Source: Minisyncoccota bacterium | GTDB lineage: Bacteria > Patescibacteriota > Minisyncoccia > Phycocordibacterales > Phycocordibacteraceae | Direction: 5' to 3' | Length of the DNA stretch: 64,000 nt | Assembly (NCBI GenBank): GCA_041666305.1 | Contig: JBAYHD010000001.1 | Location: forward strand, 18,149-82,148 | In this document: piece after piece, positions 24,004 through 61,615 of the stretch | Layout of the letters: each line of letters opens with the position of its first letter | Numbering within the stretch: the first letter of the stretch is position 1 | The notes under the pieces: generated by a model | Database searches by the model: none | Told to the model about the DNA's origin: nothing | The model's input: the letters and a program-made list of their open reading frames with translations, nothing else | Program-made: the position numbers and the translations under genes

Positions 24004-24627
24004 TTATGCGCTACGAAGCTTCTTCAACGCCGTGATCGTTGCGCGCGCAATGGTGAGCTTATTCTTCGTGCGCGTGTGGATCTTCGTCACGACGTCGGTC
24101 ACGCCCGCGAGGTCGAGCACGGTGCGCATCGCCGAACCGGCGACGAGCCCGCGCCCCTTGGACGGAATGATTTCTACGATGGAAGAAGCGTACTTTGCTT
24201 TCACCTGATGCGGAATGGAACCTGACTTTGTTCGAGCAACGGTGAAGAGATGCTTCTTCGCATCCCGAGTCGCTTTATCGATTGCGAGCGCAGTGTCCGC
24301 AGCTTTGCCGAGGCCGACCCCCACACGACCCTTCTTATCGCCGATGACGACGACGAGGCTGAAATTGAAGCGGCGACCGCCGGCCATAACACGGGCCACG
24401 CGGCGCGCATCGATGGTCACCTGGTCGAACTCGCCGCGCTCACGCGGCGGCCGACCGCGGCCGCCGCCGCGCGGAGCGCGGCCGCGCATAGCACCACGGC
24501 CGCCGCCGCGCTGCGCGGCGGCGGGAGCTGCTGGAGCGACTTCTGCCGCAGCAACTTCAACAACCGCCTCGGGCGCGGTTACTTCCTCCACTTCCTGTAT
24601 GATCTCCGGCTTAAGGGGTGTAGTCAT
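24004..24627 (-). CDS. rpsE: 30S ribosomal protein S5 (with ~60-aa Ala/Pro/Arg/Gly-rich N-terminal extension)
   Basis: ARRVARVMAGGRRFNFSLVVVIGDKKGRVGVGLGKA...VKAKYASSIVEIIPSKGRGLVAG. Confidence 0.92.
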   Translation of the reverse strand: MTTPLKPEIIQEVEEVTAPEAVVEVAAAEVAPAAPAAAQRGGGRGAMRGRAPRGGGRGRPPRERGEFDQVTIDARRVARVMAGGRRFNFSLVVVIGDKKGRVGVGLGKAADTALAIDKATRDAKKHLFTVARTKSGSIPHQVKAKYASSIVEIIPSKGRGLVAGSAMRTVLDLAGVTDVVTKIHTRTKNKLTIARATITALKKLRSA

Positions 24628-50616: not shown

Positions 50617-51069
50617 ATGACTGACCGTAAAATCACTGAAGGTGCTTTTAATAAAGGGCCGCTCCGCAAAATATTAAATAAGCAGGAGTACAATGCTCAC
50701 CTCACCGCCGCAGGTAAGGAACGTGTTGAAGCTGCGATCAAGGCAGGCGTCCAAGCTGAAGCGAAGAAATTCCATCTACAATACGGTGTCGCCGGTACCC
50801 ATGCTGATGCCATTGCAAAATTCTCAACGTCAAAAAAATACGGGCAAGAAGATCGACGTGCCTTAATGCGAAAACCGAAAGAACAGGAGGTTATTAAGGA
50901 TTCTCTCGACATATTCTTCAAACGAAAGCCGGCTGCGCCCGTGATCGAGGAAAAAGTTGAGGCGCCGGCACCAAGAGTTGAACTTAAATCATTTGAGATC
51001 AAACCATCAAACCCGATGCCCGATGCGGCGAATGACGCTCATGACGGGGAACACGAAAAAGCGGCTTAA
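50617..51069 (+). CDS. hypothetical protein
   Basis: ATG 50617 (ORF track uses GTG 50599). Lys/Ala-rich, no motif recognised. Confidence 0.35.
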   Translation: MTDRKITEGAFNKGPLRKILNKQEYNAHLTAAGKERVEAAIKAGVQAEAKKFHLQYGVAGTHADAIAKFSTSKKYGQEDRRALMRKPKEQEVIKDSLDIFFKRKPAAPVIEEKVEAPAPRVELKSFEIKPSNPMPDAANDAHDGEHEKAA

Positions 51070-52994
51070 GCTTCAATAACAAATTCACCATCGGTCTCGT
51101 CGTAGAGCATTAGTGAGCCGTCGATATCGGCGAGAAATGACGATGGCTCCGATGCGAAATCGTTGCCGTATATCTTACGGACGCGCGCGAGCGTGAGAAA
51201 AAGCCGATTTTTTGCGCGCGTCATCGCCACATAAAAAAGACGTCGTTCTTCTTCCTCGTCGCGGTCGGTCTCATTCCCCATGCCCTGGTGCGGGAATAGT
51301 CCTTCTTCCATGCCGGTCACAAAAACCGTATCGAATTCAAGACCCTTTGCCGCGTGCACGGTCATGAGCGTCACTCCTCGCTTTTCTCCTTGATCCATCT
51401 CGTCCTGGTCGCTCGCAAGCGCCGCCTCGGCGAGGAATGTCGCAATGCCCTCCTTCCCCGGCATGGCATCATGCCGCGCGGCAACTGACGCAAGCTCTTC
51501 CACATTTTCAAATCGTTCGCGGTCCTCCGCACTTCCTTCGTCGAAAAGCGCGCGACGCATGCCACTCTTCTCGACGACGAGTCGCACGAACTCCGAAGGC
51601 ATGAGTGCTTCTGCTGCGCGCGAAAGTTCATCGATAATCGCTTCAAATGCTTCCACTTTCACGAGTTCACCGGCGCGAAGCGCGGCGCGTTGCCCTGCGG
51701 CGAGTTTGCCGAGCGTCACTTTTCCGATGCCGCGCGACGGATTTGCCGCCGCGCGGAGCTTATCCACCTCGCGCGAAGAGTCCATCGCGAGACGCATCCA
51801 CGCGAGAGCGTCCTTCACTTCTTTCCGCGCAAAGAATTTCGTACCGATGAGTTTGTACGGCACGCCCGCACGGAGGAGCCCTTCTTCAAGCGCACGTGAT
51901 TGGAAATTGGTGCGGAAAAGTATTGCGACTTCTTCCGGCTTTTCTCCATTCCTCATTAATTCGCGTATTTTGAGCGCCACCCAGCGCGCTTCGTCCTCCG
52001 CACTCCGCGCCATGTGCACGACGATAGGAGCGCCGGCTAGTTTTTCGGTCGTAGAATATTTTTCTTTACGATTTTTATTTTTCTCAATGACGGCATTTGC
52101 GGCGTCCACCAGATTTTTCGTCGCCCGATAGTTCTGAGAAAGGATGATCGTCTGCGCCTCCGGATACGTTTTGTCGAATTCGAGCAGATTCTCTATCGTC
52201 GCCCCGCGCCACGTATAAATAGTCTGATCGATGTCGCCGACGACGAAGAGATTCCGATGTTTTGCGGCAAGCATATTCGCAAGGCGCCCCTGAAGTGCGT
52301 TGGTGTCCTGATATTCGTCGATGTGAATGTACTTCCAGCGGTCTTGCGCGAGCGCGCGGACGTCTTCGTGCTCTTCCAGGAGCTTCACCGGGAGCGCAAT
52401 GAGGTCGTCGAAATCCAAAGACTTCTCTTCTTTCAATGTTTTTTCATAGCGGAGCCATGCTTCGGCGGCAATGCGGTTGCCGAAACCGGACCGGCCGTGC
52501 TTTTCATAAAATTCATGCGCTTGCATGCCTTCCCCTTTCGCTCGTGAGATGCGACCGAGGATTGCGCGCGGGGAAAACTCCTTTGCGCCGACATCGAGCG
52601 CCTTCAGTGCCGCGCCAATCGCTTTTTCGGAGTCGTCGCGGTCATACACACTGAAGAAACGCTGAATGCCGATCGCCTTCCCGTAGCTTTCAAGCAGTTC
52701 TCGACCGAGTCCGTGGAATGTGGCGATGAACGGGAGCCCCGAGGGGGCCCCTTCGGGGCGGCCGTCCTCGCCCAGCTGCCTCCGCACCCGCTCGCGCATC
52801 TCGCGGGCAGCTTTATTGGTGAAGGTGACGGCGAGTATCTCGCCCGCGGGCACGCCCGAGCGGACCAAATGAGAGATGCGCGTCGTGAGGACACGCGTTT
52901 TCCCGCTTCCGGCACCGGCCAAAACTGAAATCGGGCCGTCGGTAGCGAGCACCGCCTTTTTTTGGGCGTCATTCAATCCTTCGAGGTATTTCAC
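51066..52994 (-). CDS. UvrD/PcrA/Rep-family ATP-dependent DNA helicase
   Basis: 642 aa. AGAGSGKTRVLTTRISHLV (motif I)...GTKFFARKEVKDALAWMRLA...VHAAKGLEFDTVFV (motif VI). Carries a GC-palindrome insertion at 52737..52758 (GRPEGAPSGLP). Confidence 0.9.
   Translation of the reverse strand: MKYLEGLNDAQKKAVLATDGPISVLAGAGSGKTRVLTTRISHLVRSGVPAGEILAVTFTNKAAREMRERVRRQLGEDGRPEGAPSGLPFIATFHGLGRELLESYGKAIGIQRFFSVYDRDDSEKAIGAALKALDVGAKEFSPRAILGRISRAKGEGMQAHEFYEKHGRSGFGNRIAAEAWLRYEKTLKEEKSLDFDDLIALPVKLLEEHEDVRALAQDRWKYIHIDEYQDTNALQGRLANMLAAKHRNLFVVGDIDQTIYTWRGATIENLLEFDKTYPEAQTIILSQNYRATKNLVDAANAVIEKNKNRKEKYSTTEKLAGAPIVVHMARSAEDEARWVALKIRELMRNGEKPEEVAILFRTNFQSRALEEGLLRAGVPYKLIGTKFFARKEVKDALAWMRLAMDSSREVDKLRAAANPSRGIGKVTLGKLAAGQRAALRAGELVKVEAFEAIIDELSRAAEALMPSEFVRLVVEKSGMRRALFDEGSAEDRERFENVEELASVAARHDAMPGKEGIATFLAEAALASDQDEMDQGEKRGVTLMTVHAAKGLEFDTVFVTGMEEGLFPHQGMGNETDRDEEEERRLFYVAMTRAKNRLFLTLARVRKIYGNDFASEPSSFLADIDGSLMLYDETDGEFVIEA
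52737..52758. repeat. GC-rich palindromic element copy (CCCCGAGGGGGCCCCTTCGGGG) embedded in-frame in the helicase gene
   Basis: Same motif as 53079..53102 and 60880..60901. Confidence 0.7.
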
Positions 52995-53078
52995 TTACGA
53001 AATATACCCCATAAGATAACATTTATCCTAAACACAACATCAAGGGAGTACTTTATCTCACGGGGTATACCTTAAAAC

Positions 53079-53102
53079 GCCCCGAAGGGGCCCCTTCGGG
53101 GC
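53079..53102. repeat. perfect 24-bp GC palindrome GCCCCGAAGGGGCCCCTTCGGGGC (intergenic copy)
   Basis: Read directly. Reverse complement is identical. Confidence 0.85.
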
Positions 53103-53206
53103 TCTCCACAGGTCACTTTTGGGGTGATTGACTCCCAAATCTGGGGGGCTATACTCCCAATATCGACTGATACGGATGAAATCAAGGAATGGCTTATATA
53201 CGGCGT

Positions 53207-54301
53207 ATGTAAGCCATTCTTGTATTAAGAAAGACCAACCGAACCCCCAAGTTTCCCATTAAATCCAACCAACAATTTCTCATACTCGGGCTCGTGGCTG
53301 TTCTGTCTGCCACGGCGCTCCTGCCGGACCACGCAAGTGCGTTCTGGCCTTTTTCTACAAATGCAGACGCCGCAACATCGGCTCTCATACCGAGCTCCTC
53401 GACGCCGACCCTTCGCGCCCCGCTCAACAGCAATCCGAACTCATCTGCGCCGATAGCGCTCGCCACCTCCGGCGGTTCAGCGCTCGTCTCATATAACGGA
53501 CCGGACGGTACCGTGGCGGACGTCGCCGGTTCGGTCCAAACTGACCGAATCTCGGTGTATGTGGTGCGTAACGGCGATACCCTTTCCGAGATTTCTGATA
53601 TGTTCGGCGTTTCAATAAATACCATCTTGTGGGCAAACAACTTGAAGAGTTCCCGTGATGTCCACCCAGGTGATATGCTCGTTATTCTTCCTATTTCAGG
53701 AGTTGAGCGCACGGTTATAAAGGGCGATACGCTCAAATCTCTGGCAAAGAAATACTCTGCAGATGCGGAAGAAATTGCGCAGTACAATGGTCTCGATCTG
53801 GAAGCGCCACTCGCAATCGGCACCACAATCATTATCCCGGGCGGAGAAATAGCTGCGCCTGCGCCGCGTCCGCAATCCTCCCCCGCCATCGTGAACAGCG
53901 GAGGTGGAACATTTATAGCCGGTTATTTCAGTAATCCAGTGCCCGGTGCCAGAGTCACACAAGGCATTCATGGCAAGAACGGCATTGACCTCGGCGGAGC
54001 GCGCGGCACGCCAGTACACGCCGCGGCGGACGGTATGATCATCATCGCGCGCGGCGGCGGCGCATGGAACGGAGGCTATGGCAATTATATCGTCATTACG
54101 CACAACAACGGTACTCAAACTCTCTATTCCCACTTGAAATCCGTGATTGTTTCCTCCGGACAACAAGTCTCTTCCGGACAAGTTATCGGGTACATGGGCT
54201 CAACCGGCAAGGTCACGGGCGTCCATCTCCACTTTGAAGTTCGCGGTGCGGCAAATCCTTTTCGTAATTGCTCGGTCGGTTCGGTTTGTTCTCCTCAATA
54301 A
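53207..54301 (+). CDS. secreted LysM (x2) plus M23-family peptidase (peptidoglycan endopeptidase)
   Basis: Upstream in-frame ATG 53207 adds a signal peptide (MLSHSVLRKTNRTPKFPIKSNQQFLILGLVAVLSATALLPDHASA). LysM: YVVRNGDTLSEISDMFGVSINTILWAN, VIKGDTLKSLAKKYSADAEEIAQYN. M23: GIDLGGARGTPVHAAADGMII...YGNYIVITHNNGTQTLYSHL...GSTGKVTGVHLHFEV. Confidence 0.85.
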
Positions 54302-54310
54302 CTTCTCATA

Positions 54311-54700
54311 TTATTTAAGAGAGGGTTTCTTGTTCGCCAAGATTAACTTCTTGAGTCGAGCGTCCATGTCGCTGTGCAGGCTCAAGTGGCGAGGGAACAG
54401 GCCGTCATTTTCTATATCGTCGCTGTCACCGGGCAACACGTATACCATTCCGCTTTGCGGATTTTTGCCAAGAACTATTTTCATTCCGTGCAACTGTAGT
54501 CTCGCGACGCGTGCGTCAATTGGTGTCGTTGTATCTGGATAGTCCGGGTCCACTTCCTCTTCTCCCTTTTTCATCGTTTGGTAAGCTCCCTCATCGATGC
54601 CGAAAAATGGAAGTGCTTCGACTTGCTCACTCAACTCAACTGCAAGTCGTAGATATTCCGACTTCGTCATCCCCTCCTGATTTGGAATTCCTTCTGACAT
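54311..54700 (-). CDS. acidic hypothetical protein, downstream neighbour of the TIR-like gene
   Basis: 129 aa, no motif. 162-nt gap to the TIR-like gene on the same strand. Confidence 0.4.
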   Translation of the reverse strand: MSEGIPNQEGMTKSEYLRLAVELSEQVEALPFFGIDEGAYQTMKKGEEEVDPDYPDTTTPIDARVARLQLHGMKIVLGKNPQSGMVYVLPGDSDDIENDGLFPRHLSLHSDMDARLKKLILANKKPSLK

Positions 54701-54862
54701 ATGGCGACTATAGCACTCTGCTACTTCTCCTCAATGCATCAGTATCTTTTGCAGAACATCCCTCAGGATGGTTGGTATGCAAAAACAAAGAAATATCCTT
54801 ATATTTATTACTTTCTGCGACTAAAAGCGACTCACTGTTATCAAAATACGTTTCTGCATATC

Positions 54863-56275
54863 CTACTGAATAATTGCCCCTCCGCCCTCACTTCCTATTT
54901 TTTGGACTTCTATATCCGTGAAGGGTGCATGTCTGTCGTACATAAGACTTTTAGAGGAAGGGGTGAGTCGTTTTTTTAGTTCATCTATATCAGAAATGCC
55001 GAGGACATGACACATGCGCATCGCGTAAGGATAGTCTTTTGCCTCATAAATAAAAGTTGGGGTATGGTCGAGGAACAATACACTTCGCGGATACCAGTCT
55101 CCACCATACTGCCCCCTCTCCCCTGGTCCGTATAGATGTAGGAAAAAATCAATATCGAGGAAGTCCCTGAATGGAAGTTCTCTTGAAAGTGGACCAACTT
55201 CATGTCTACCTCTCAGCAAGTCGGCATGCAGAGATTTCCGCTGTTTCTTCGGACTCTCATCTGCAAGGAGTGGGAGATGTTCGGAGAGTTCGGTCCAGCT
55301 TTGCTTAGAGGGTTCGTGCCGATTTCTAGACGGTCCTATTATTAAGGTTCCCTTCAGAAGTTCTTGTAGTGCATCCCACTTCTCCTCCTTGAAGAACGGC
55401 GCAATAAACGTAGTAAACATTTCGTGCCCAACAAACTTGTAGAAATCCCCATCGGCGTTCGTTCCTCGACCTTGCTCATTATGCGGAGGATTATATCGTT
55501 GTAGCAATTTACCGAACCACTGAAATATCTCCCTTGCCGATTCCATATCGTTCATTACAGCAACTGTTTCAGTGAGTCTTCCGAAGTCGGCTACGATATC
55601 GGCTGTTTTGGAGATTGCCGTCATTAGCTCCTCAGCACTCCCGCCATCAACTGCTTTTCGGGGCTCCAGTGTTTCAAGTTCGGTCAGTACCCCAGTAAGA
55701 TGTTTCCTCAAGTGGATAATCTTAGCCGCTGGATTTTGTTCAATAATGTCGGTTATGGAGATGCGAGGTGTAGAGGGTTTTATTCCAGCGAAGCCGTCTA
55801 GCAGAGCTGCCTTTAAATCCTTTGTTAGGGAGGATTTTATAGTTGATTTATCCATTTCTACTTCCTTTGCTGTGTAGGTCAGGATACGCCGCATCTTCAA
55901 ATCAAATGGGAGATCCGTTAGTTTTCCGTATGCTTCGTTGAAAATGAGTACCAGACCCTCATGCCCTTTTGCTTTAAGCGCGTACCCAAGCTCAATGAGT
56001 ACATTCGGATTGGGAAATGCGCGTTTCTTTGTATTCGCGACGAATGAGATGTCCGCCACAAACAAGTCTGCACTGGCAATCTTTCCGAAAATTGTTGTGG
56101 CGATATCAGGTGCGCCAGCTGCCCCTTTCGTATCTCGATCAATGACAGGTTCAATGTCAATATTCTCGTCGCTCGCTATTGCTTTGGCTGCGTCCTGCAA
56201 AGCCGTCTCTATGAGAGTACGGTTAGTTGAGTTCGGGAGGTCGGACTGCCACGAGTAAAAAACTGTTCTTTTCAT
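54863..56275 (-). CDS. TIR-like (DUF1863/ThsB-like) N-terminal domain protein with ~320-aa uncharacterised C-terminal domain; candidate defence/NAD-processing effector
   Basis: 470 aa. N-terminal MKRTVFYSWQSDLPNS...IFGKIASADLFVADISFVANTKKRAFPNPNVLIELGYALKAKGHEGLVLIFN matches the TIR-like pattern (F-S-x-x-x-D near the N-terminus, hydrophobic-D-hydrophobic-S core strand, ELGYAL Glu helix). No recognisable motif in the C-terminal domain. Confidence 0.5.
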   Translation of the reverse strand: MKRTVFYSWQSDLPNSTNRTLIETALQDAAKAIASDENIDIEPVIDRDTKGAAGAPDIATTIFGKIASADLFVADISFVANTKKRAFPNPNVLIELGYALKAKGHEGLVLIFNEAYGKLTDLPFDLKMRRILTYTAKEVEMDKSTIKSSLTKDLKAALLDGFAGIKPSTPRISITDIIEQNPAAKIIHLRKHLTGVLTELETLEPRKAVDGGSAEELMTAISKTADIVADFGRLTETVAVMNDMESAREIFQWFGKLLQRYNPPHNEQGRGTNADGDFYKFVGHEMFTTFIAPFFKEEKWDALQELLKGTLIIGPSRNRHEPSKQSWTELSEHLPLLADESPKKQRKSLHADLLRGRHEVGPLSRELPFRDFLDIDFFLHLYGPGERGQYGGDWYPRSVLFLDHTPTFIYEAKDYPYAMRMCHVLGISDIDELKKRLTPSSKSLMYDRHAPFTDIEVQKIGSEGGGAIIQ

Positions 56276-56458
56276 ATATGGGTATTCTGCACGAGATTAA
56301 GATTTTATGCACTAAGGGGCATTTATATCAGTAGCGACTGAATTATATACTCACACTAATGCTTTCGGTAGATACATCCCTGGATTCGCTTTCATAATAG
56401 ACGCCCTACGGTCTTTCTCTGAAACAGGGTGGGTGAGCAAGGGCTACCCTTGCTCAGA

Positions 56459-58021
56459 TTATTCAAATCCGAAGAGGCCGCGGGGGCGGTATTGGAGGGC
56501 TTCGTGGACAAATGCGGGCGTGACGGCTTCAGTGCCGGCAAGGTCGGCGATGGTGCGTGCGACGCGCATCGTGCGGTGATAACTGCGCGGCGAGAGATTG
56601 AGGCGCGCGGCAGATCGGGTGAGTGTTTCTTTTGCTTCGGGCGTGAATCCGCTTTTTTCATCCAACTCGCGGCCGGTGAGCGCGGCGTTTGTCGCGTTTT
56701 TCTTGCCGGTGCGCTTCGTGGCGCGCGCACGCGCGGCAACCACGCGCTCGCGCACTCTTTCTGACGGTTCGCCGCTAGAAAGTTTCGCAAGCGTGCTATG
56801 CGGCACAAGCGGTACTTCTATCCAAAGATCAAGGCGGTCCACAATGGGCCGAGAGATCCTGCGTGCTTGCTTCTGTGCCGCGCGTATCGCCACGCGCGAA
56901 TCATCAGAAAGCGTGTCGGCAGGATTCATTGCGGCAACTATCATGCAATCGGCCGGAAAAGTAACACTCGCGCGTGCGCGCGAGACGGTGACCACGCGAT
57001 CTTCAAGCGGTTGGCGTAACGCCTCCAGTGTTCTTGAATCGAATTCCGGAAATTCGTCCAGAAACAAAACGCCTTTGTGCGCGAGCGTCACTTCTCCCGC
57101 TTTCGGAAACGCTCCGCCGCCCACCATCGCGACATGCGAGAGAGAATGGTGAGGCGAACGAAAGGGCGGCCAGTACACCGCCTCACCTTCGGAGAGCAAT
57201 CCGGCCGTTGAATGTATCGCCGTCACTTCGAGCATATCGTCGTCGGTGAGTGGAGGCAGAATGCCGGCAAGCGCACGGGCGAGCATTGTTTTCCCGGTGC
57301 CGGGAGGTCCATAAAAAACGATATTATGCCTCCCCGCGGCGGCTATCTCCAAGGCGCGCTTCGCACTTTCCTGCCCTTTTACGTCAGAGAGGTCGAGCGC
57401 CGGCGGAGGTGTCGGCGCGCGCCTGTCGCGCACTTGTATAGGCAACGGTTTCTCTCCTTTCAAATGTTGTAAAAGTTCCGTAAGCGATGTTGGTGCATAC
57501 ACGGCGACGCCATCGGCGAGAAGCGCTTCGCGCGCATTTCCCTGTGGTACGAAAATCGTCTTTACTCCGCGGCGTTTCGCCGCAAGCACTTGCGGAAGCA
57601 CTCCTCGCACTGCACGAAGTGTCCCATCGAGCGCAAGTTCTCCCGCAAAAAGCATTTCTTCGGTGAGTTCGGCAAGCTCTTCCGCAGCGATGAGATACGC
57701 GAGCGCAAGTGCGAGGTCGTAATGCGAGCCTTCTTTTTTCAGATCCGCAGGCGAAAGCGAAAGCACAATGAGCTTGTTCTGCTTCTTTGGCGACTTGATG
57801 CCGGAATGTCGAATTGCCGCACTCAAGCGATCTCGAGCCTCTTCAACTGCTTTATCCGCAAGACCAACAATGGAAAATGCATGGAGCCCACGTGTAATGT
57901 CTGCCTCAACGCTTACCATTTCCGCGGCAGAGCCGACCGGTTGTGCGGCAAATGTTTTCGCGTAGCCCTTTTTTTGTGCGACGCGTTTGGGAGAAGCAGG
58001 TTTTAAGCGTGCCACTGCCAT
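56459..58021 (-). CDS. comM: YifB/ComM-family Mg-chelatase-like AAA+ ATPase
   Basis: 520 aa. Lon-like N-domain, Walker [16 protein letters not shown], ...Mg-chelatase C-terminal domain. Start may be slightly different (alignment suggests the N-terminus begins near KTFAAQPV). Confidence 0.88.
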
Positions 58022-58024
58022 GAA

Positions 58025-58372
58025 TTACAAATCTTTCTTGCAGGTCGTTGCGGCCGGATCGGCCTCGAGCCGTTCTTCCTCCATCTTTTCGCCGCAGACT
58101 TCGCATATCCCGTACGTCTTCTTTTCGATACGAGAAAGCGCCGAAATGATAGAGTCATATCGAGCTTCGAGATCGGCAAGGATGGCGGTATTTGTCTCGC
58201 GACTTGTAACGGCGTCCGCCTGATCTATGAGGTCGGCTTCATTCCCGGTCTCGGACGGAATGGCTTCCCAGTCTCCGGGAACCGAAAGATTGGGGCGGCC
58301 GACGCTTCCCATTTCTGCTTCTAGTTTCGCCTTTTCGGCCTCAAGTTTTTTCCTAAAGTGTTCAGTCTTCAT
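58025..58372 (-). CDS. DksA/TraR-family C4-type zinc-finger protein
   Basis: 115 aa. Coiled-coil N-terminus plus YGICEVCGEKMEEERLEADPAATTCKKDL. Confidence 0.7.
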   Translation of the reverse strand: MKTEHFRKKLEAEKAKLEAEMGSVGRPNLSVPGDWEAIPSETGNEADLIDQADAVTSRETNTAILADLEARYDSIISALSRIEKKTYGICEVCGEKMEEERLEADPAATTCKKDL

Positions 58373-58395
58373 GCAAGGATAATAGCAGACTGGCG

Positions 58396-59628
58396 TCAGG
58401 GCGTACGGGAAGTCGCAAGACGCGCGATTATTTCGGAAAACGCCGCGGCGTCGCGCGCAATGATGAGCGTCGTTTGGTTCCAGTATCCGTAGAGCATCAC
58501 CGTGCGACTATTACTGTCACGATAGACGCGCACATCATGATTTGCGACAGTGGCATCAAAAAACGACGGCACAGTCGTTGGTGCAGGCGACACAGGTTTG
58601 CCCGCCGGTACGCTCGGCGTTGTGACTCGAGGTGAACTGGTCGACACCGCTGAAGTGGTTGAGGCTATCGCAACCGTAGAGGTTGCCAGAGGTTGCACAA
58701 TAACCGGTGACGGATAGGGTGGATACAATTTGGCAAGATCGCGCGGCATCGATTTTTCCCACAACAGCATACCAGCGAACGTATTGCTGTATGACGAGAC
58801 GGAAAGTATGAAAAACGGGCTCTGCACGCCGCCCACATTCACAACACCGGCCATGCTTTGCGAAGCGTTGATGTTGCGCAACAGAGCGCCGGGCGCCGGC
58901 AATTGCAATGCGGAAAAGACGCTTGTGGAAGTCGCGTTTTCCAGATACAGAAGTCGCACATTCCCCACCGCAAGCTGGCTTGCAACCGATTGTTGTACGG
59001 CTTGCATGAGCGCCGTACCGGTGCCGGCCACCGGTTTTCTATCATCAACGAATATCGGAGCAATTGCGCCGGAAATCAGTACCACGGGTACGGATGAAGC
59101 GATGTATTGCGTATAGGCAAAGTATGCCCCCACCCCGCTCGCAATGATAAGTATTGCCCCGCCGATGCTGTACAGAATATTGCTGCGCGAAAATTTCGAC
59201 GGCTGTACCTGCACAAGCATTGGGGCCGAATCTTGTTCGGCCGCAAGCACAGTCGCCGTCGAAGCCTGCATGGTATTCATGCGCTCGGTGAAGTCGCTCG
59301 CGTATGTTTGTATCGGCGACGCCTTCGGTTCCTCAACTGCAGGATGTTGTAGAACGAAACGTTCACCCGGAGCTATCGCGACGGTTCCCAAGGGAGTCGA
59401 AACAGGAAGGGGTTGTTCTGTGGGCGGTGAAACCGGTGCTTCCGGAACCACTGGTGCCGGGACCGGCGCTGATACAGGCGCGGAGACAGGGGCCGGTACC
59501 GGTTGTGCGGGCGCACCGCCTTTCTTTAAAAGTTCCAGATCGCCATGAAACGTGCGGATGTGCTGCTTCGGTTTTTCCGCATCAGCCGGCGCATTTAGTG
59601 GTGTGGGTAGTGTCGGCGGCATATCCAT
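58396..59628 (-). CDS. proline-rich, single-TM anchored hypothetical protein
   Basis: 410 aa. PAQPVPAPVSAPVSAPVPAPVVPEAPVSPP, TM ILYSIGGAILIIASGVGAYFAY, beta-rich C-domain. Confidence 0.45.
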   Translation of the reverse strand: MDMPPTLPTPLNAPADAEKPKQHIRTFHGDLELLKKGGAPAQPVPAPVSAPVSAPVPAPVVPEAPVSPPTEQPLPVSTPLGTVAIAPGERFVLQHPAVEEPKASPIQTYASDFTERMNTMQASTATVLAAEQDSAPMLVQVQPSKFSRSNILYSIGGAILIIASGVGAYFAYTQYIASSVPVVLISGAIAPIFVDDRKPVAGTGTALMQAVQQSVASQLAVGNVRLLYLENATSTSVFSALQLPAPGALLRNINASQSMAGVVNVGGVQSPFFILSVSSYSNTFAGMLLWEKSMPRDLAKLYPPYPSPVIVQPLATSTVAIASTTSAVSTSSPRVTTPSVPAGKPVSPAPTTVPSFFDATVANHDVRVYRDSNSRTVMLYGYWNQTTLIIARDAAAFSEIIARLATSRTP

Positions 59629-59713
59629 TCACCTCCAATTCTAGCAGGCTCTAGGCACTAGGCCCTAGGCACTAGCGGGGGAATAGCTAAAGCCTAGCGC
59701 CTGCTTCGCTGGC

Positions 59714-60223
59714 CTAACGGCTAGTTATGGTGAACTTCCGTGGATCGATGTCCATATCGGTAAATGCGTGCGCCGCTTCTTTCAATTTCGCGGACGAAGA
59801 TTTGCCGAAAGAAATAACCTCCACCTGCATGCCGTGCATATCGAGATATTCGATGAGCGGCACGAAATCGCCATCGCCGGACGCGATGATGACGGTGTCG
59901 AGCTTGTCTGCGAGCTTTATCGCGTCTACCGCGAGTCCGACGTCCCAGTCGGCTTTCTTTGCGCCGTCGGCGAAGACCTGGAGGTCTTTCACTTTTGTTT
60001 CAATGCCGATCTTAGTGAGCGCCTCAAAGAAGTTCGTCTCTTCCCCGCTCTCCGTGGAGATGACGTAGGCGATGGCGCGCACGAGTATGCGGCCGCCGAC
60101 TGCCTCTTCAAGGACTTTTGCGAAGTTCACGCGCGCTTTGTAGAGATGCTTGGCGCTGTGATAGAGATTTTGCGTGTCGATGAATACGCCCACACGCTGA
60201 GCTGGATGTTTGATAACTGCCAT
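59714..60223 (-). CDS. NYN (LabA-like, PIN-related) domain protein
   Basis: 169 aa. RVGVFIDTQNLY...DWDVGLAVDAI...TVIIASGDGDFVPLIEYL. Confidence 0.7.
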   Translation of the reverse strand: MAVIKHPAQRVGVFIDTQNLYHSAKHLYKARVNFAKVLEEAVGGRILVRAIAYVISTESGEETNFFEALTKIGIETKVKDLQVFADGAKKADWDVGLAVDAIKLADKLDTVIIASGDGDFVPLIEYLDMHGMQVEVISFGKSSSAKLKEAAHAFTDMDIDPRKFTITSR

Positions 60224-60330
60224 ATAAACTAGTTAGTTAGGCGCTAGGCTCTAGGAACCTAGCAATTCATGTAAATGCGGCACTTGCCACTTCTTCATAC
60301 TACCACTCTTTTTCTAGCGCCTAAGGCCTG

Positions 60331-60597
60331 TTATTTTTTCAAGCCTAGTTTCTTGATAAGCGCGTTGTAGCGGCGCTTGTCGTTGGTTTCGAGATAACGG
60401 AGGTGCGAGCGGCGATCGGCAACCATCTGCAAGAGACCCCGGCGAGAATGGAAATCCTTCGGGTTCTTCTTCAAATGCTTCGCGAGTTCGTCGATCTGCT
60501 TGGAAAGAAGCGCGACCTGCACATCCGGCGAGCCGGTGTCAGTATCGTGCCGGGCAGTGCTTTTCATCACTGCCGCCTTTTTCTTAGTAGTAAGCAT
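60331..60597 (-). CDS. rpsO: 30S ribosomal protein S15
   Basis: 88 aa. TGSPDVQVALLSKQIDELAKHLKKNPKDFHSRRGLLQMVADRRSHLRYL. Confidence 0.92.
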   Translation of the reverse strand: MLTTKKKAAVMKSTARHDTDTGSPDVQVALLSKQIDELAKHLKKNPKDFHSRRGLLQMVADRRSHLRYLETNDKRRYNALIKKLGLKK

Positions 60598-60679
60598 GAG
60601 TAGGACTACCTTACCACGCCTTGCTTAAACGCGCAAGTGTCGCAGAATGAAGTGCGCACAATATTGTTATACTTTCCCT

Positions 60680-61615
60680 ATGAATGCTGAGGCCGCAAAA
60701 CGCCAATTCCTTGAATACATAGAGATAGAGCGCGGGCGCGCGGTGAAGACTATCGAGAATTACGACCGCTACCTCACTCGCTTTTTCGAACAGATGAAAA
60801 TCAAGAATGTCGGGGACATCACCGAACAGAACGTCCGCGAATTCCGCCTCTGGCTCAACCGTCAGAAAGGCACGACGCACCCCAAAGGGGCCCCTTCGGG
60901 GATGAAGCGTCGCACCCAGAACTACTACATGATTGCGCTTCGCGCATTTCTCAAATTCCTCCGCAAACGCGATATCGAAGCCATTTCACCGGAAAAGATA
61001 GAGCTCGCGAAGCTCCCCGAACGCCAACTTGATCTCATCACGCCCGCGGAACTGGAACGGCTTATGAAAGCGCCCGGCGAAGCCTACAAGAAAGAGCCCG
61101 ACGAGGATAAAAAGCTCCATTACCTGCGCGACAGCGCCATTCTTGAACTACTCTTCTCCACTGGCCTGCGCGTGTCCGAGCTCTGTGCGCTTAACTCTGA
61201 TATGGACCTATCGCGCGATGAATTATCAGTACGAGGAAAAGGCGAGAAAGTGCGCGTTGTATTCCTCTCCCCTGCCGCGAAAGAAGCCGTGCGCGATTAT
61301 TTGAAAGTCCGCAAAGATATGGAGGAAGCATTATTCGTGGACGGCCGGCCGAACGCGCCTCATCGCATAACTCCGCGCGACATCCAGCGACACTTAAAGG
61401 GCTACGTCGCCCGCGCCGGCATCACGAACGTCGTGACGCCTCACACGCTCCGCCACGCCTTCGCCACCGACTTGTTATCGAATGGTGCGGACATCCGCAG
61501 TGTCCAACAGCTCCTCGGCCACGCCTCCATCAACACCACGCAAATTTACACGCACATTACGGATAGTCATTTGCGAGAAATACACAAGAAGTTCCATGGT
61601 CGGAATCGTAGTTAG
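60680..61615 (+). CDS. xerC: tyrosine recombinase XerC/XerD-like
   Basis: Core-binding N-domain, then C-terminal HTLRHAFATDLLSNGADIRSVQQLLGHASINTTQIYTHI (R..H.R..Y catalytic residues). ATG 60680 preferred over 60647. Carries a GC-palindrome insertion at 60880..60901 (HPKGAPSGMK). Confidence 0.85.
   Translation: MNAEAAKRQFLEYIEIERGRAVKTIENYDRYLTRFFEQMKIKNVGDITEQNVREFRLWLNRQKGTTHPKGAPSGMKRRTQNYYMIALRAFLKFLRKRDIEAISPEKIELAKLPERQLDLITPAELERLMKAPGEAYKKEPDEDKKLHYLRDSAILELLFSTGLRVSELCALNSDMDLSRDELSVRGKGEKVRVVFLSPAAKEAVRDYLKVRKDMEEALFVDGRPNAPHRITPRDIQRHLKGYVARAGITNVVTPHTLRHAFATDLLSNGADIRSVQQLLGHASINTTQIYTHITDSHLREIHKKFHGRNRS
60880..60901. repeat. GC-rich palindromic element copy (CCCCAAAGGGGCCCCTTCGGGG) embedded in-frame in xerC-like gene
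   Basis: Same motif as 52737..52758 and 53079..53102. Confidence 0.7.

Follow-up and report, generated by a model that had tools for sequence, protein, structure and literature searches.

Short double-hairpin insertions in genes of a Kaiserbacteria genome and their relation to a tRNA-embedded GIY-YIG cassette

A 64-kb stretch of contig JBAYHD010000001.1, referred to here as the window, derives from a genome of the Candidate Phyla Radiation (CPR) that belongs, to judge from the names of its UvrD orthologues, to Kaiserbacteria/Paceibacterota, and carries three copies of a very short GC-rich repeat. Two of these lie inside protein-coding genes, those of a UvrD-like helicase and a XerC-like recombinase, and the third lies between genes (Table 1). 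In sequence, the window copies correspond to one form of a conserved module, structured as two hairpins, that belongs to a tRNA-associated cassette with a GIY-YIG nuclease open reading frame (ORF). We describe the copies as insertions, and consider how copies standing alone, hereafter solo copies, might have come from such a cassette.

Copies in the window and empty sites in relatives

All three copies follow the general form CCCC-NNN-GGGGCCCC-TTC-GGGG, which occurs three times in the window, and their whole unit is self-complementary. A first-pass annotation of this DNA had described three identical cores; the three sites are real, but copies 1 and 3 each differ by one loop base, starting with CCCCGAGGGGG and CCCCAAAGGGG respectively, while the perfect intergenic 24-mer that it reported is present upstream of uvrD. 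The 64 kb contain no further copy with up to three mismatches and no isolated half-sites that would bound a larger element. None of 100 dinucleotide-preserving shuffles of the window gave a match to the 22-mer, which is therefore not expected by chance. The window copies form a local cluster, as three lie within 8.2 kb when ~910 kb from the window's relatives hold only about three. Both genic copies share a reading frame and encode P-(E/K)-G-A-P-S-G, in line with the annotation, with copy 1 coding for R79-P-E-G-A-P-S-G86 on the minus strand of uvrD and copy 3 for P79-K-G-A-P-S-G85 in xerC. Rfam gave no match in the window. An intrinsic terminator was rejected, as none of the three copies is followed by a T-run, the genes on either side of copy 2 start divergently, and copies 1 and 3 lie inside ORFs.

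Table 1. Repeat copies in the 64-kb window and the features that hold them
Feature	Position	Strand	Context	Sequence or match
Copy 1, double mini-hairpin GCCCCGAGGGGGCCCCTTCGGGGC	52736..52759 (22-mer 52737-52758)		inside uvrD/pcrA	22-mer CCCCGAGGGGGCCCCTTCGGGG
Copy 2, perfect 24-mer GCCCCGAAGGGGCCCCTTCGGGGC	53079..53102 (22-mer 53080-53101)		between divergent uvrD and LysM/M23 peptidase genes	22-mer CCCCGAAGGGGCCCCTTCGGGG
Copy 3, double mini-hairpin CCCCAAAGGGGCCCCTTCGGGG	60880..60901		inside xerC	
~88-nt insertion	53011..53102 (bounds approximate)		upstream of uvrD; copy 2 is its outer end	MAFFT alignment against L118 and L119
PcrA/UvrD helicase	51066..52994	minus	host of copy 1	PcrA 1pjr match, E = 2.8e-142
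XerC/XerD-type tyrosine recombinase	60647..61615	plus	host of copy 3	PF00589, PF02899

Each of the three copies is an insertion that is polymorphic for presence and absence, and the insertions are recent; the closest relatives with empty sites have 70–93% protein identity. The uvrD insert is carried by two of the 120 best orthologues (79–100% identity), namely the window's own protein and P0004. In place of the window's ...GEDGRPEGAPSGLPF..., many UvrD orthologues have ...GEDGPLPF..., the closest one (P0002, 93%) among them. At the DNA level, the empty site of the closest orthologue, in L118, is GGT CCT CTT CCG and the filled site of the window is GGC CGC CCC GAA GGG GCC CCC TCG GGG CTC CCG, a net gain of 21 nucleotides (nt). 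A second relative, L119 (P0004; UvrD 86% identical), has the uvrD insert too, decayed by two point changes. Copy 2 is part of an intergenic insertion of ~88 nt which is missing in both L118 and L119. In this insertion the hairpin module is followed by an incomplete duplicate of the right flank (cgttttaagGTATA) and by ~56 nt of unassigned sequence, after which comes the original flank (GGGGTATAtttcgtaaGTG, uvrD coding strand), and this layout of the flank copy is similar to that of the cassettes described below. In XerC, all 15 of the 15 relatives compared (70–89% identity) read NRQPGT-xxxS-MKRR; the window reads NRQKGTTHPKGAPSGMKRR, with the insert standing in place of a variable four-residue loop and adding 15 nt net. 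The reverse situation is found in KsgA, where relative L129 has the perfect 24-mer cleanly inserted (+24 nt) in another frame (PRRGPFGA) and the window gene is empty. Close orthologues of UvrD and XerC therefore exist without the insert and without the same residues, and convergent coding is excluded because the motif is a presence/absence-polymorphic insertion. The frame is kept in both genes as annotated, but the net gain relative to the nearest orthologues is seven residues in UvrD and five in XerC, and not the 8–10 that had been estimated.

The insert in UvrD follows helicase motif Ia (FTNKAA, residues 58–63) and precedes the TFH motif (residues 92–94), which corrects its earlier placement before motif Ia. 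Alignment with PcrA and an AlphaFold model put it, as far as a model of moderate confidence allows (mean predicted local distance difference test score 62.8; used for secondary structure only), in a coil between helix 60–74 and strand 89–92, and the XerC insert falls within a loop of that protein's N-terminal SAM-like domain. In Kaiserbacteria relatives the loop of UvrD that joins motif Ia to TFH (window 52740–52790, residues 75–88) is a hot spot for insertions. Measured from FTNKAA to TFH, it varies from 29 to 51 residues among L120–L199, with recurring inserts (PSTDSGQA..., APHEATQNK..., LDLTTPYNPPPTTS..., LEASSEQRA...) whose DNA consists of GC hairpins (in L126, CCCGCGCCGC-AGA-GCGGCGCGGG) and tandem repeats of 7–14 nt. 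Some Parcubacteria UvrD orthologues (P0069, P0118 and P0119) are ~1010 amino acids (aa) long and contain an intein domain, PF14890, so that this gene is host to a further type of mobile insert that keeps the frame.

Window positions 54000–56300 form a low-GC patch (0.469 vs ~0.54 elsewhere) with two minus-strand ORFs that have no Pfam match (54311–54700 and 54863–56275). Past the peptidase gene, the closest relative, L118, has HicA/HicB-type genes and other ORFs instead, and the patch probably represents a variable island adjoining the cluster of inserts. Positions 24435–24506 hold a cluster of GC-rich quasi-palindromes that overlap one another and are based on GCGGCCGC; their sequence has no relation to the motif.

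Distribution over other genomes and comparison with known repeats

Whether the motif occurs more than three times had been left open by the annotation, and a scan of one bacterial or archaeal genome per species, with one loop left free, gave at least 117 loci in public genomes. These are mostly in low-GC (30–50%) CPR/Patescibacteria, including Saccharibacteria, Peribacteria, Berkelbacteria, Falkowbacteria, Kazan, Abawacabacteria, Doudnabacteria, Gracilibacteria and Paceibacterota, but non-CPR hosts (Bacteroidota, Gamma- and Deltaproteobacteria, Verrucomicrobiota and others) also carry it, and the contigs with the motif include some of 0.6–2.6 Mb. At least 8–10 copies are present per genome in three genomes. 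No match was found among the viral contigs of IMG/VR, and a phage origin was rejected on that ground. The commonest form of the motif is asymmetric and the loops vary most: of 120 listed copies, 57 have the loop pair AAA/TTC, 17 have AAC/TTC and 16 the perfect GAA/TTC. The base flanking the ends of solo copies is G in 58%, so that the usual unit is a 24-mer, GCCCC...GGGGC. Flanks of AG or TAG are enriched at the copies, in inverted arrangement (AG before the element and CT after it).

The 54 long open frames that contain the motif read it in all three frames (22, 19 and 13), and it is also found in non-coding DNA. In-frame hosts verified with Pfam are an RlmI-like methyltransferase, UvrA, a CCA/polyA polymerase, DnaX, PheT, QueA, DnaG, a protein kinase and a DUF520 protein. 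Orientation relative to genes shows no bias (15 vs 11 inside ORFs, 65 vs 62 nearby). Direct repeats of 1–8 nt at the ends, as expected of a target-site duplication, are at chance level; the one excess, at 3 nt (11 vs 2.6 expected, with ends padded by 2 nt), is attributed to a single within-genome family. Complementarity of the flanks beyond the 24-mer drops to background after 1–3 nt, so there is no longer inverted repeat, and a flank is copied to the element's other side at 26 of the 117 listed sites, against ~10 expected. In some genomes the 22-mer is found inside genome-specific arrays of 7–8-nt tandem repeats (CTTACCAG/CTTACTAG; CGTGAAA; GAATTCA) with no nuclease nearby (L012, L015, L046, L073 and L090, from Berkelbacteria; L021, L081 and L097; L009 and L039), which suggests slippage around hairpins or a larger within-genome repeat family.

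Other short repeats occur in the same surroundings. The 22-mer adjoins or sits in GC-rich repeats of the cccttcgacaggctcaggacaag and gtcattgcgagcgaagcaatc types (L018:1033–1062, L071:1715–1790, L006:120–200), and in L071 it interrupts a gtcattgcgagcgaagcaatc-type repeat. We take both the cccttcgacaggctcaggacaag ('PFDRLRTS'-type) and the gtcattgcgagcgaagcaatc-type repeats to be common in many uncultivated bacteria. Relatives of the window have variant double hairpins, CTCCTAAGGAG-CCCCTTTGGGG and CCCCCAAGGGG-TCCCTTTGGGGA (L127:10, L168:116, L176:5488; L129:2997).

Several motif matches lie close to contig ends, as is usual for repeats, and this might point to an artefact of assembly or sequencing. 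However, the same DNA stands in three reading frames and in non-coding DNA, frames are kept in verified genes, and the point-mutated uvrD copy is shared with L119. The motif also recurs in genomes that separate projects put together with separate assemblers, on contigs of up to 2.6 Mb, and no copy is expected by chance. An explanation by artefact, by chance or by convergent coding of a GAPSG loop is thus scarcely credible.

The annotation had likened the repeat to Rickettsia palindromic elements (RPEs), which are ~150 bp long, palindromic, and inserted in-frame in housekeeping genes, where they add a peptide at tolerated positions, with no transposase of their own known (PMC10969869). The likeness holds in that unrelated genes are invaded in-frame, here UvrD, XerC and KsgA with empty-site controls. 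RPEs, however, are confined to Rickettsia, have a defining length of ~100–150 bp and encode a conserved peptide per family, whereas the present unit has 22–24 bp, is read in three frames, occurs in many phyla with CPR hosts, and is tied to a cassette. The proposal of an inserted, polymorphic, in-frame repeat is therefore upheld and membership of the RPEs is not, on grounds of size, host and architecture. A second comparison is with the GC clusters of yeast mitochondria, short GC-rich palindromes of AT-rich genomes that lie in-frame in var1, change fastest in their loops, merge and shuffle, and form recombination hot spots near AT-rich sequence, their mechanism of movement being still open (PMC8811140). 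Here, too, the loops are most variable, AT-rich short tandem repeats adjoin, and AG/TAG flanks are enriched. The yeast clusters differ in being organellar and longer, and in having AG/TAG direct terminal repeats that are read as target duplications, where the present copies have inverted flanks and no direct duplication.

Repetitive extragenic palindromic (REP) sequences with their REP-associated tyrosine transposases (RAYT), and the palindrome-associated transposable elements (PATEs) of IS200/IS605 insertion sequences, are likewise short GC-rich hairpin repeats without target-site duplication. By the definition in PMC3733652, one end of a REP has a conserved tetranucleotide, GTAG or CGTC; the 244 ends of the listed copies show GTAG twice and CGTC not at all. 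The present unit is moreover not limited to extragenic DNA, no Y1 transposase was seen with it, and the same sequence extends across phyla instead of being species-specific. A classical MITE (miniature inverted-repeat transposable element) is ruled out by the lack of target-site duplication, and no parent insertion sequence was found for the unit. In-frame insertion as in RPEs (PMC10969869) and a short GC-rich palindrome as in REPs are the features that would speak for membership of a known family. Against them stand the length (22–24 bp compared with ~150 bp in RPEs), the missing target duplication and GTAG/CGTC tag, and an intragenic position foreign to REPs, and we consider that the unit is very improbably an RPE, a REP/RAYT sequence or a classical MITE. 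Full-text searches, as far as the searchable literature reaches, gave no description of the exact DNA and peptide strings or of this combination of features.

A tRNA-embedded GIY-YIG cassette carrying the double hairpin

A fragment of a tRNA gene is split by the element in 20 of 121 listed copies (17%), and this link to tRNA fragments and a minimal GIY-YIG cassette goes beyond anything the first-pass annotation had claimed. Taking out the 22-mer joins two flanks that together match a tRNA, usually at 100% over 21–36 nt to an intact tRNA of the same locus, which lies 45–675 nt downstream of the fragment and in the same orientation. Nearly all fragments cover the 5' end of the tRNA gene (positions 1 to ~25–28), with the element in the D-loop. 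Whole tRNA genes bearing the insert were ruled out, since ARAGORN found no whole tRNA at the insertion points, even after deletion of the 22-mer, and only fragments are left. A group I intron was also rejected, as the tRNA introns of Patescibacteria sit at position 35/36 and are unrelated (10.1101/2025.07.03.662931). On the cassette loci, Rfam returned no family other than tRNA.

Where the gap between fragment and tRNA measures ~300 nt, it is filled by an ORF of 81–90 aa with a GIY-YIG motif (YVYIL...YIG.T..L..R), which comprises the catalytic domain only, with no DNA-binding domain. The ORF starts 5–32 nt past the element and ends, in most of ten cases, inside the first bases of the intact tRNA, and in the others no more than ~25 nt before it. 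Its last codons and stop (TAG) are often the first 10–15 nt of the tRNA, the stop often being the TAG of the D-loop (...GGA GGC GTC GCA TAG, read as GGVA and stop). As judged from this arrangement, processing of the tRNA by RNase P would strip the stop codon from the mRNA of the ORF. Within 843 kb of motif loci, nine of ten GIY-YIG motifs lie within 600 nt of an element and seven of ten within 35 nt. Homologues of the nuclease were found by tblastn in 17 of the 117 listed motif loci and in one of 82 loci from relatives. Cassette-type copies and genic solo copies are found together in five genomes.

Cassette loci (L010, L013, L014, L035, L044, L067, L087, L105, L106 and L200–L215) involve tRNA Ser, Tyr, Ala, Asn or Val. 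Other tRNA-derived arrangements, which lack the canonical motif, were noted beside them: in L078 the 5' half of tRNA-Met is repeated three times in tandem as 50-nt copies, ~100–150 nt before that tRNA, and L008 (tRNA-Ala) and L113 (tRNA-Gln) have 5' fragments upstream of the intact tRNA with different GC-rich hairpin inserts in the D-loop. The GIY-YIG gene of relative L162 was rejected as a cassette, being of another subfamily with no tRNA or hairpin adjoining.

The cassette was also sampled through its protein. With one nuclease ORF as the query, 117 homologues were obtained (115 with PF01541), mostly on contigs of ~1 kb, and the surroundings of nine were taken regardless of the motif. They comprise eight cassette families and a Bacteroidota locus, L209, which is arranged differently. 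In seven of the eight families this architecture recurs, and a 22-nt double hairpin interrupts the D-loop at one and the same position. The inserts are ACCCAAAGGGT-GCCCTTAGGGC (in a Kaiserbacteria genome), CCCCGAAGGGG-GCCCTTCGGGC, CCCCGAAGGGG-ACCCTTCGGGT and CCCCGAAGGGG-TCCCCTTGGGA, with ACCCAATGGGT-AGCCTTCGGCT upstream of tRNA-Tyr in one family, and the exact form of the window in two others (L210 and L211, upstream of tRNA-Ala and tRNA-Ser).

These divergent inserts bear on the structure of the unit. A model of two hairpins fits seven cassette sequences with 100% pairing; three pairs are changed on both sides, one covarying pair shows four pair types, and none of 500 shuffles reaches the observed score. 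A single 22-nt hairpin scores at the level of the shuffles, and one long hairpin or cruciform is thereby ruled out as the conserved structure. The unit, annotated as a single palindrome of 22–24 bp with a small stem-loop, is instead two independent adjacent 4-bp hairpins with 3-nt loops, usually closed by a flanking G...C (24 bp). As the two-hairpin model covaries and the single one does not, the 'palindrome' is the special case in which both stems are C4/G4. Insertion into pre-existing hairpin loops does not hold as a rule, given that the folding energy of the rejoined flanks equals that of controls (z = -0.1), and tRNA loops are a special case among the insertion targets.

The covarying stems show that structure is under selection, at any rate in the leader of the cassette. 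Directly before the leader fragment of L201, a sigma-70-like promoter close to consensus (TTGATA, 17 nt, TATAAT) can be read; because it precedes the fragment, the module would be transcribed and is probably the 5' leader of a leader–ORF–tRNA transcript. Together with the position of copy 2 in a divergent promoter region, this could indicate a functional site acting in cis and selected in place, such as a protein-binding or recombination site, a cruciform, or a stabiliser or regulator of RNA. However, the window copies are absent from the nearest relatives with the same genes and synteny, and the motif shows no orientation bias, so that a selected cis-role is unlikely for them; the use of all three frames and of non-coding contexts, the missing T-run and the lack of an Rfam family argue in the same direction.

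Of known systems, the cassette most recalls the free-standing GIY-YIG genes of the SegB type in phage T4, which lie in a tRNA gene region and are thought to spread by break repair (PMC2988022, PMC13096335). Both have the GIY-YIG catalytic domain (PF01541) in a tRNA gene region. The cassette ORFs, however, have only 81–90 aa and no DNA-binding domain, they are chromosomal, and the motif is absent from the viral scan. The cassette further differs in its duplication of the tRNA 5' part, in the overlap of the ORF with the intact tRNA and in its conserved double-hairpin leader, and homing by it is a prediction. We found no earlier description of such a tRNA-embedded cassette in the searchable literature.

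Origin and spread of the solo copies

With little more than even confidence, we favour the reading that the window holds solo copies of the tRNA/GIY-YIG cassette module, spread as a non-autonomous element that is tolerated in surface loops. Both this origin and the way of moving are what we infer. The 'home' of the module would be the cassette, made up of promoter, tRNA 5' fragment with double hairpin, GIY-YIG ORF of 81–90 aa and intact tRNA. From there, or from another solo copy, the module may be copied into broken or stalled DNA elsewhere by repair or template switching, possibly after cuts made by the cassette nuclease, and it would then be a non-autonomous derivative of a homing-type element. 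Such a process would leave no target duplication, would often drop a few target bases, and would sometimes add local duplications. The window would represent three such solo insertions into one 8-kb neighbourhood of the Kaiserbacteria/Paceibacterota genome, the genic ones surviving because they landed in surface loops with a net length change that is a multiple of three. The lack of target duplications, the varied net lengths, the excess of flank duplications and the five genomes in which cassette and solo copies co-occur are consistent with copying of this kind.

Several points weigh against the favoured reading. The 64-kb window itself contains neither a GIY-YIG homologue (tblastn) nor a tRNA gene. 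Cassette copies have AG before and TGG after the element, while the flanks of solo copies are the symmetric G...C, and given this difference the solo copies may be a separately propagating lineage. The three empty/filled pairs differ in net length (+21, +15 and +24 nt) and so do not define an insertion chemistry. The loci behind the association statistics were chosen by the motif itself, and the unbiased sample consists of the eight protein-sampled cassette families only. The covariation could reflect a function of RNA in the cassette leader, which would not explain mobility of the DNA. Lastly, both mobility and the activity and specificity of the 85-aa proteins as nucleases are predicted.

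The chief rival explanation, which we regard as possible though clearly the less probable, is an independent miniature mobile element with its own trans-acting enzyme, which gathers in redundant tRNA fragments and hitch-hikes between phyla on the cassette. The tRNA fragments made redundant by the cassette would be safe havens for it. An array in a Roseivirgaceae genome (Bacteroidota; L027:6780–7925, minus strand) has the look of repeated invasion by such an element. Here three tandem units of 375 nt, each made up of a GIY-YIG ORF and a pseudo-tRNA-Ser, come after an intact tRNA-Ser. In the pseudo-tRNAs the anticodon loop contains the element and the T-loop a variant double hairpin, TGCCCAAGGCA-TCCCTTTGGGA. 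Elsewhere in the array the hairpins are different or single, and the anticodon loop of a fourth unit contains just one, TGCCTTTGGCA. The symmetric ends of solo copies, unlike those of cassette copies, and the within-genome families in 7–8-nt tandem repeats, distant from any nuclease, can be read in the same way. Set against this, the D-loop double hairpin is present in seven of eight independently sampled families, its stems diverged by compensatory changes, and this constancy of position together with the compensatory changes argues that the double hairpin is an old and integral part of the cassette. Nor was a candidate enzyme for an independent element found, and the copies have neither a target-site duplication nor a REP-type tag.

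A bolder form of the favoured origin, to which we give only a slim chance, would have the leader serve as a guide-plus-scaffold RNA, or as a branched-DNA handle, for an 85-aa nuclease that consists of a catalytic domain only. The double hairpin splits the tRNA 5' fragment of this leader exactly where it is inserted. The cassette would then be a minimal homing nuclease, guided by nucleic acid, with tRNA genes as its targets, and the solo copies in uvrD and xerC would be by-products. In a weaker version, no mobile DNA known so far would be smaller than the 24-bp unit, which the cassette nuclease would move in trans.

If the link between solo copies and cassette holds, there are practical consequences for work on metagenome-assembled genomes, as the inserts and tRNA fragments would break assemblies and confuse the annotation of tRNAs and genes, and lineage-specific loops would arise in proteins that serve as phylogenetic markers. 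The compact tRNA-embedded cassette would offer a testable candidate for how mini-elements move. A sequence of 24 bp would then suffice as a spreading element that remodels essential proteins, UvrD, XerC, UvrA, DnaG and DnaX among them, over the CPR and several other phyla, a bacterial counterpart to the RPEs and to the GC clusters of yeast mitochondria.

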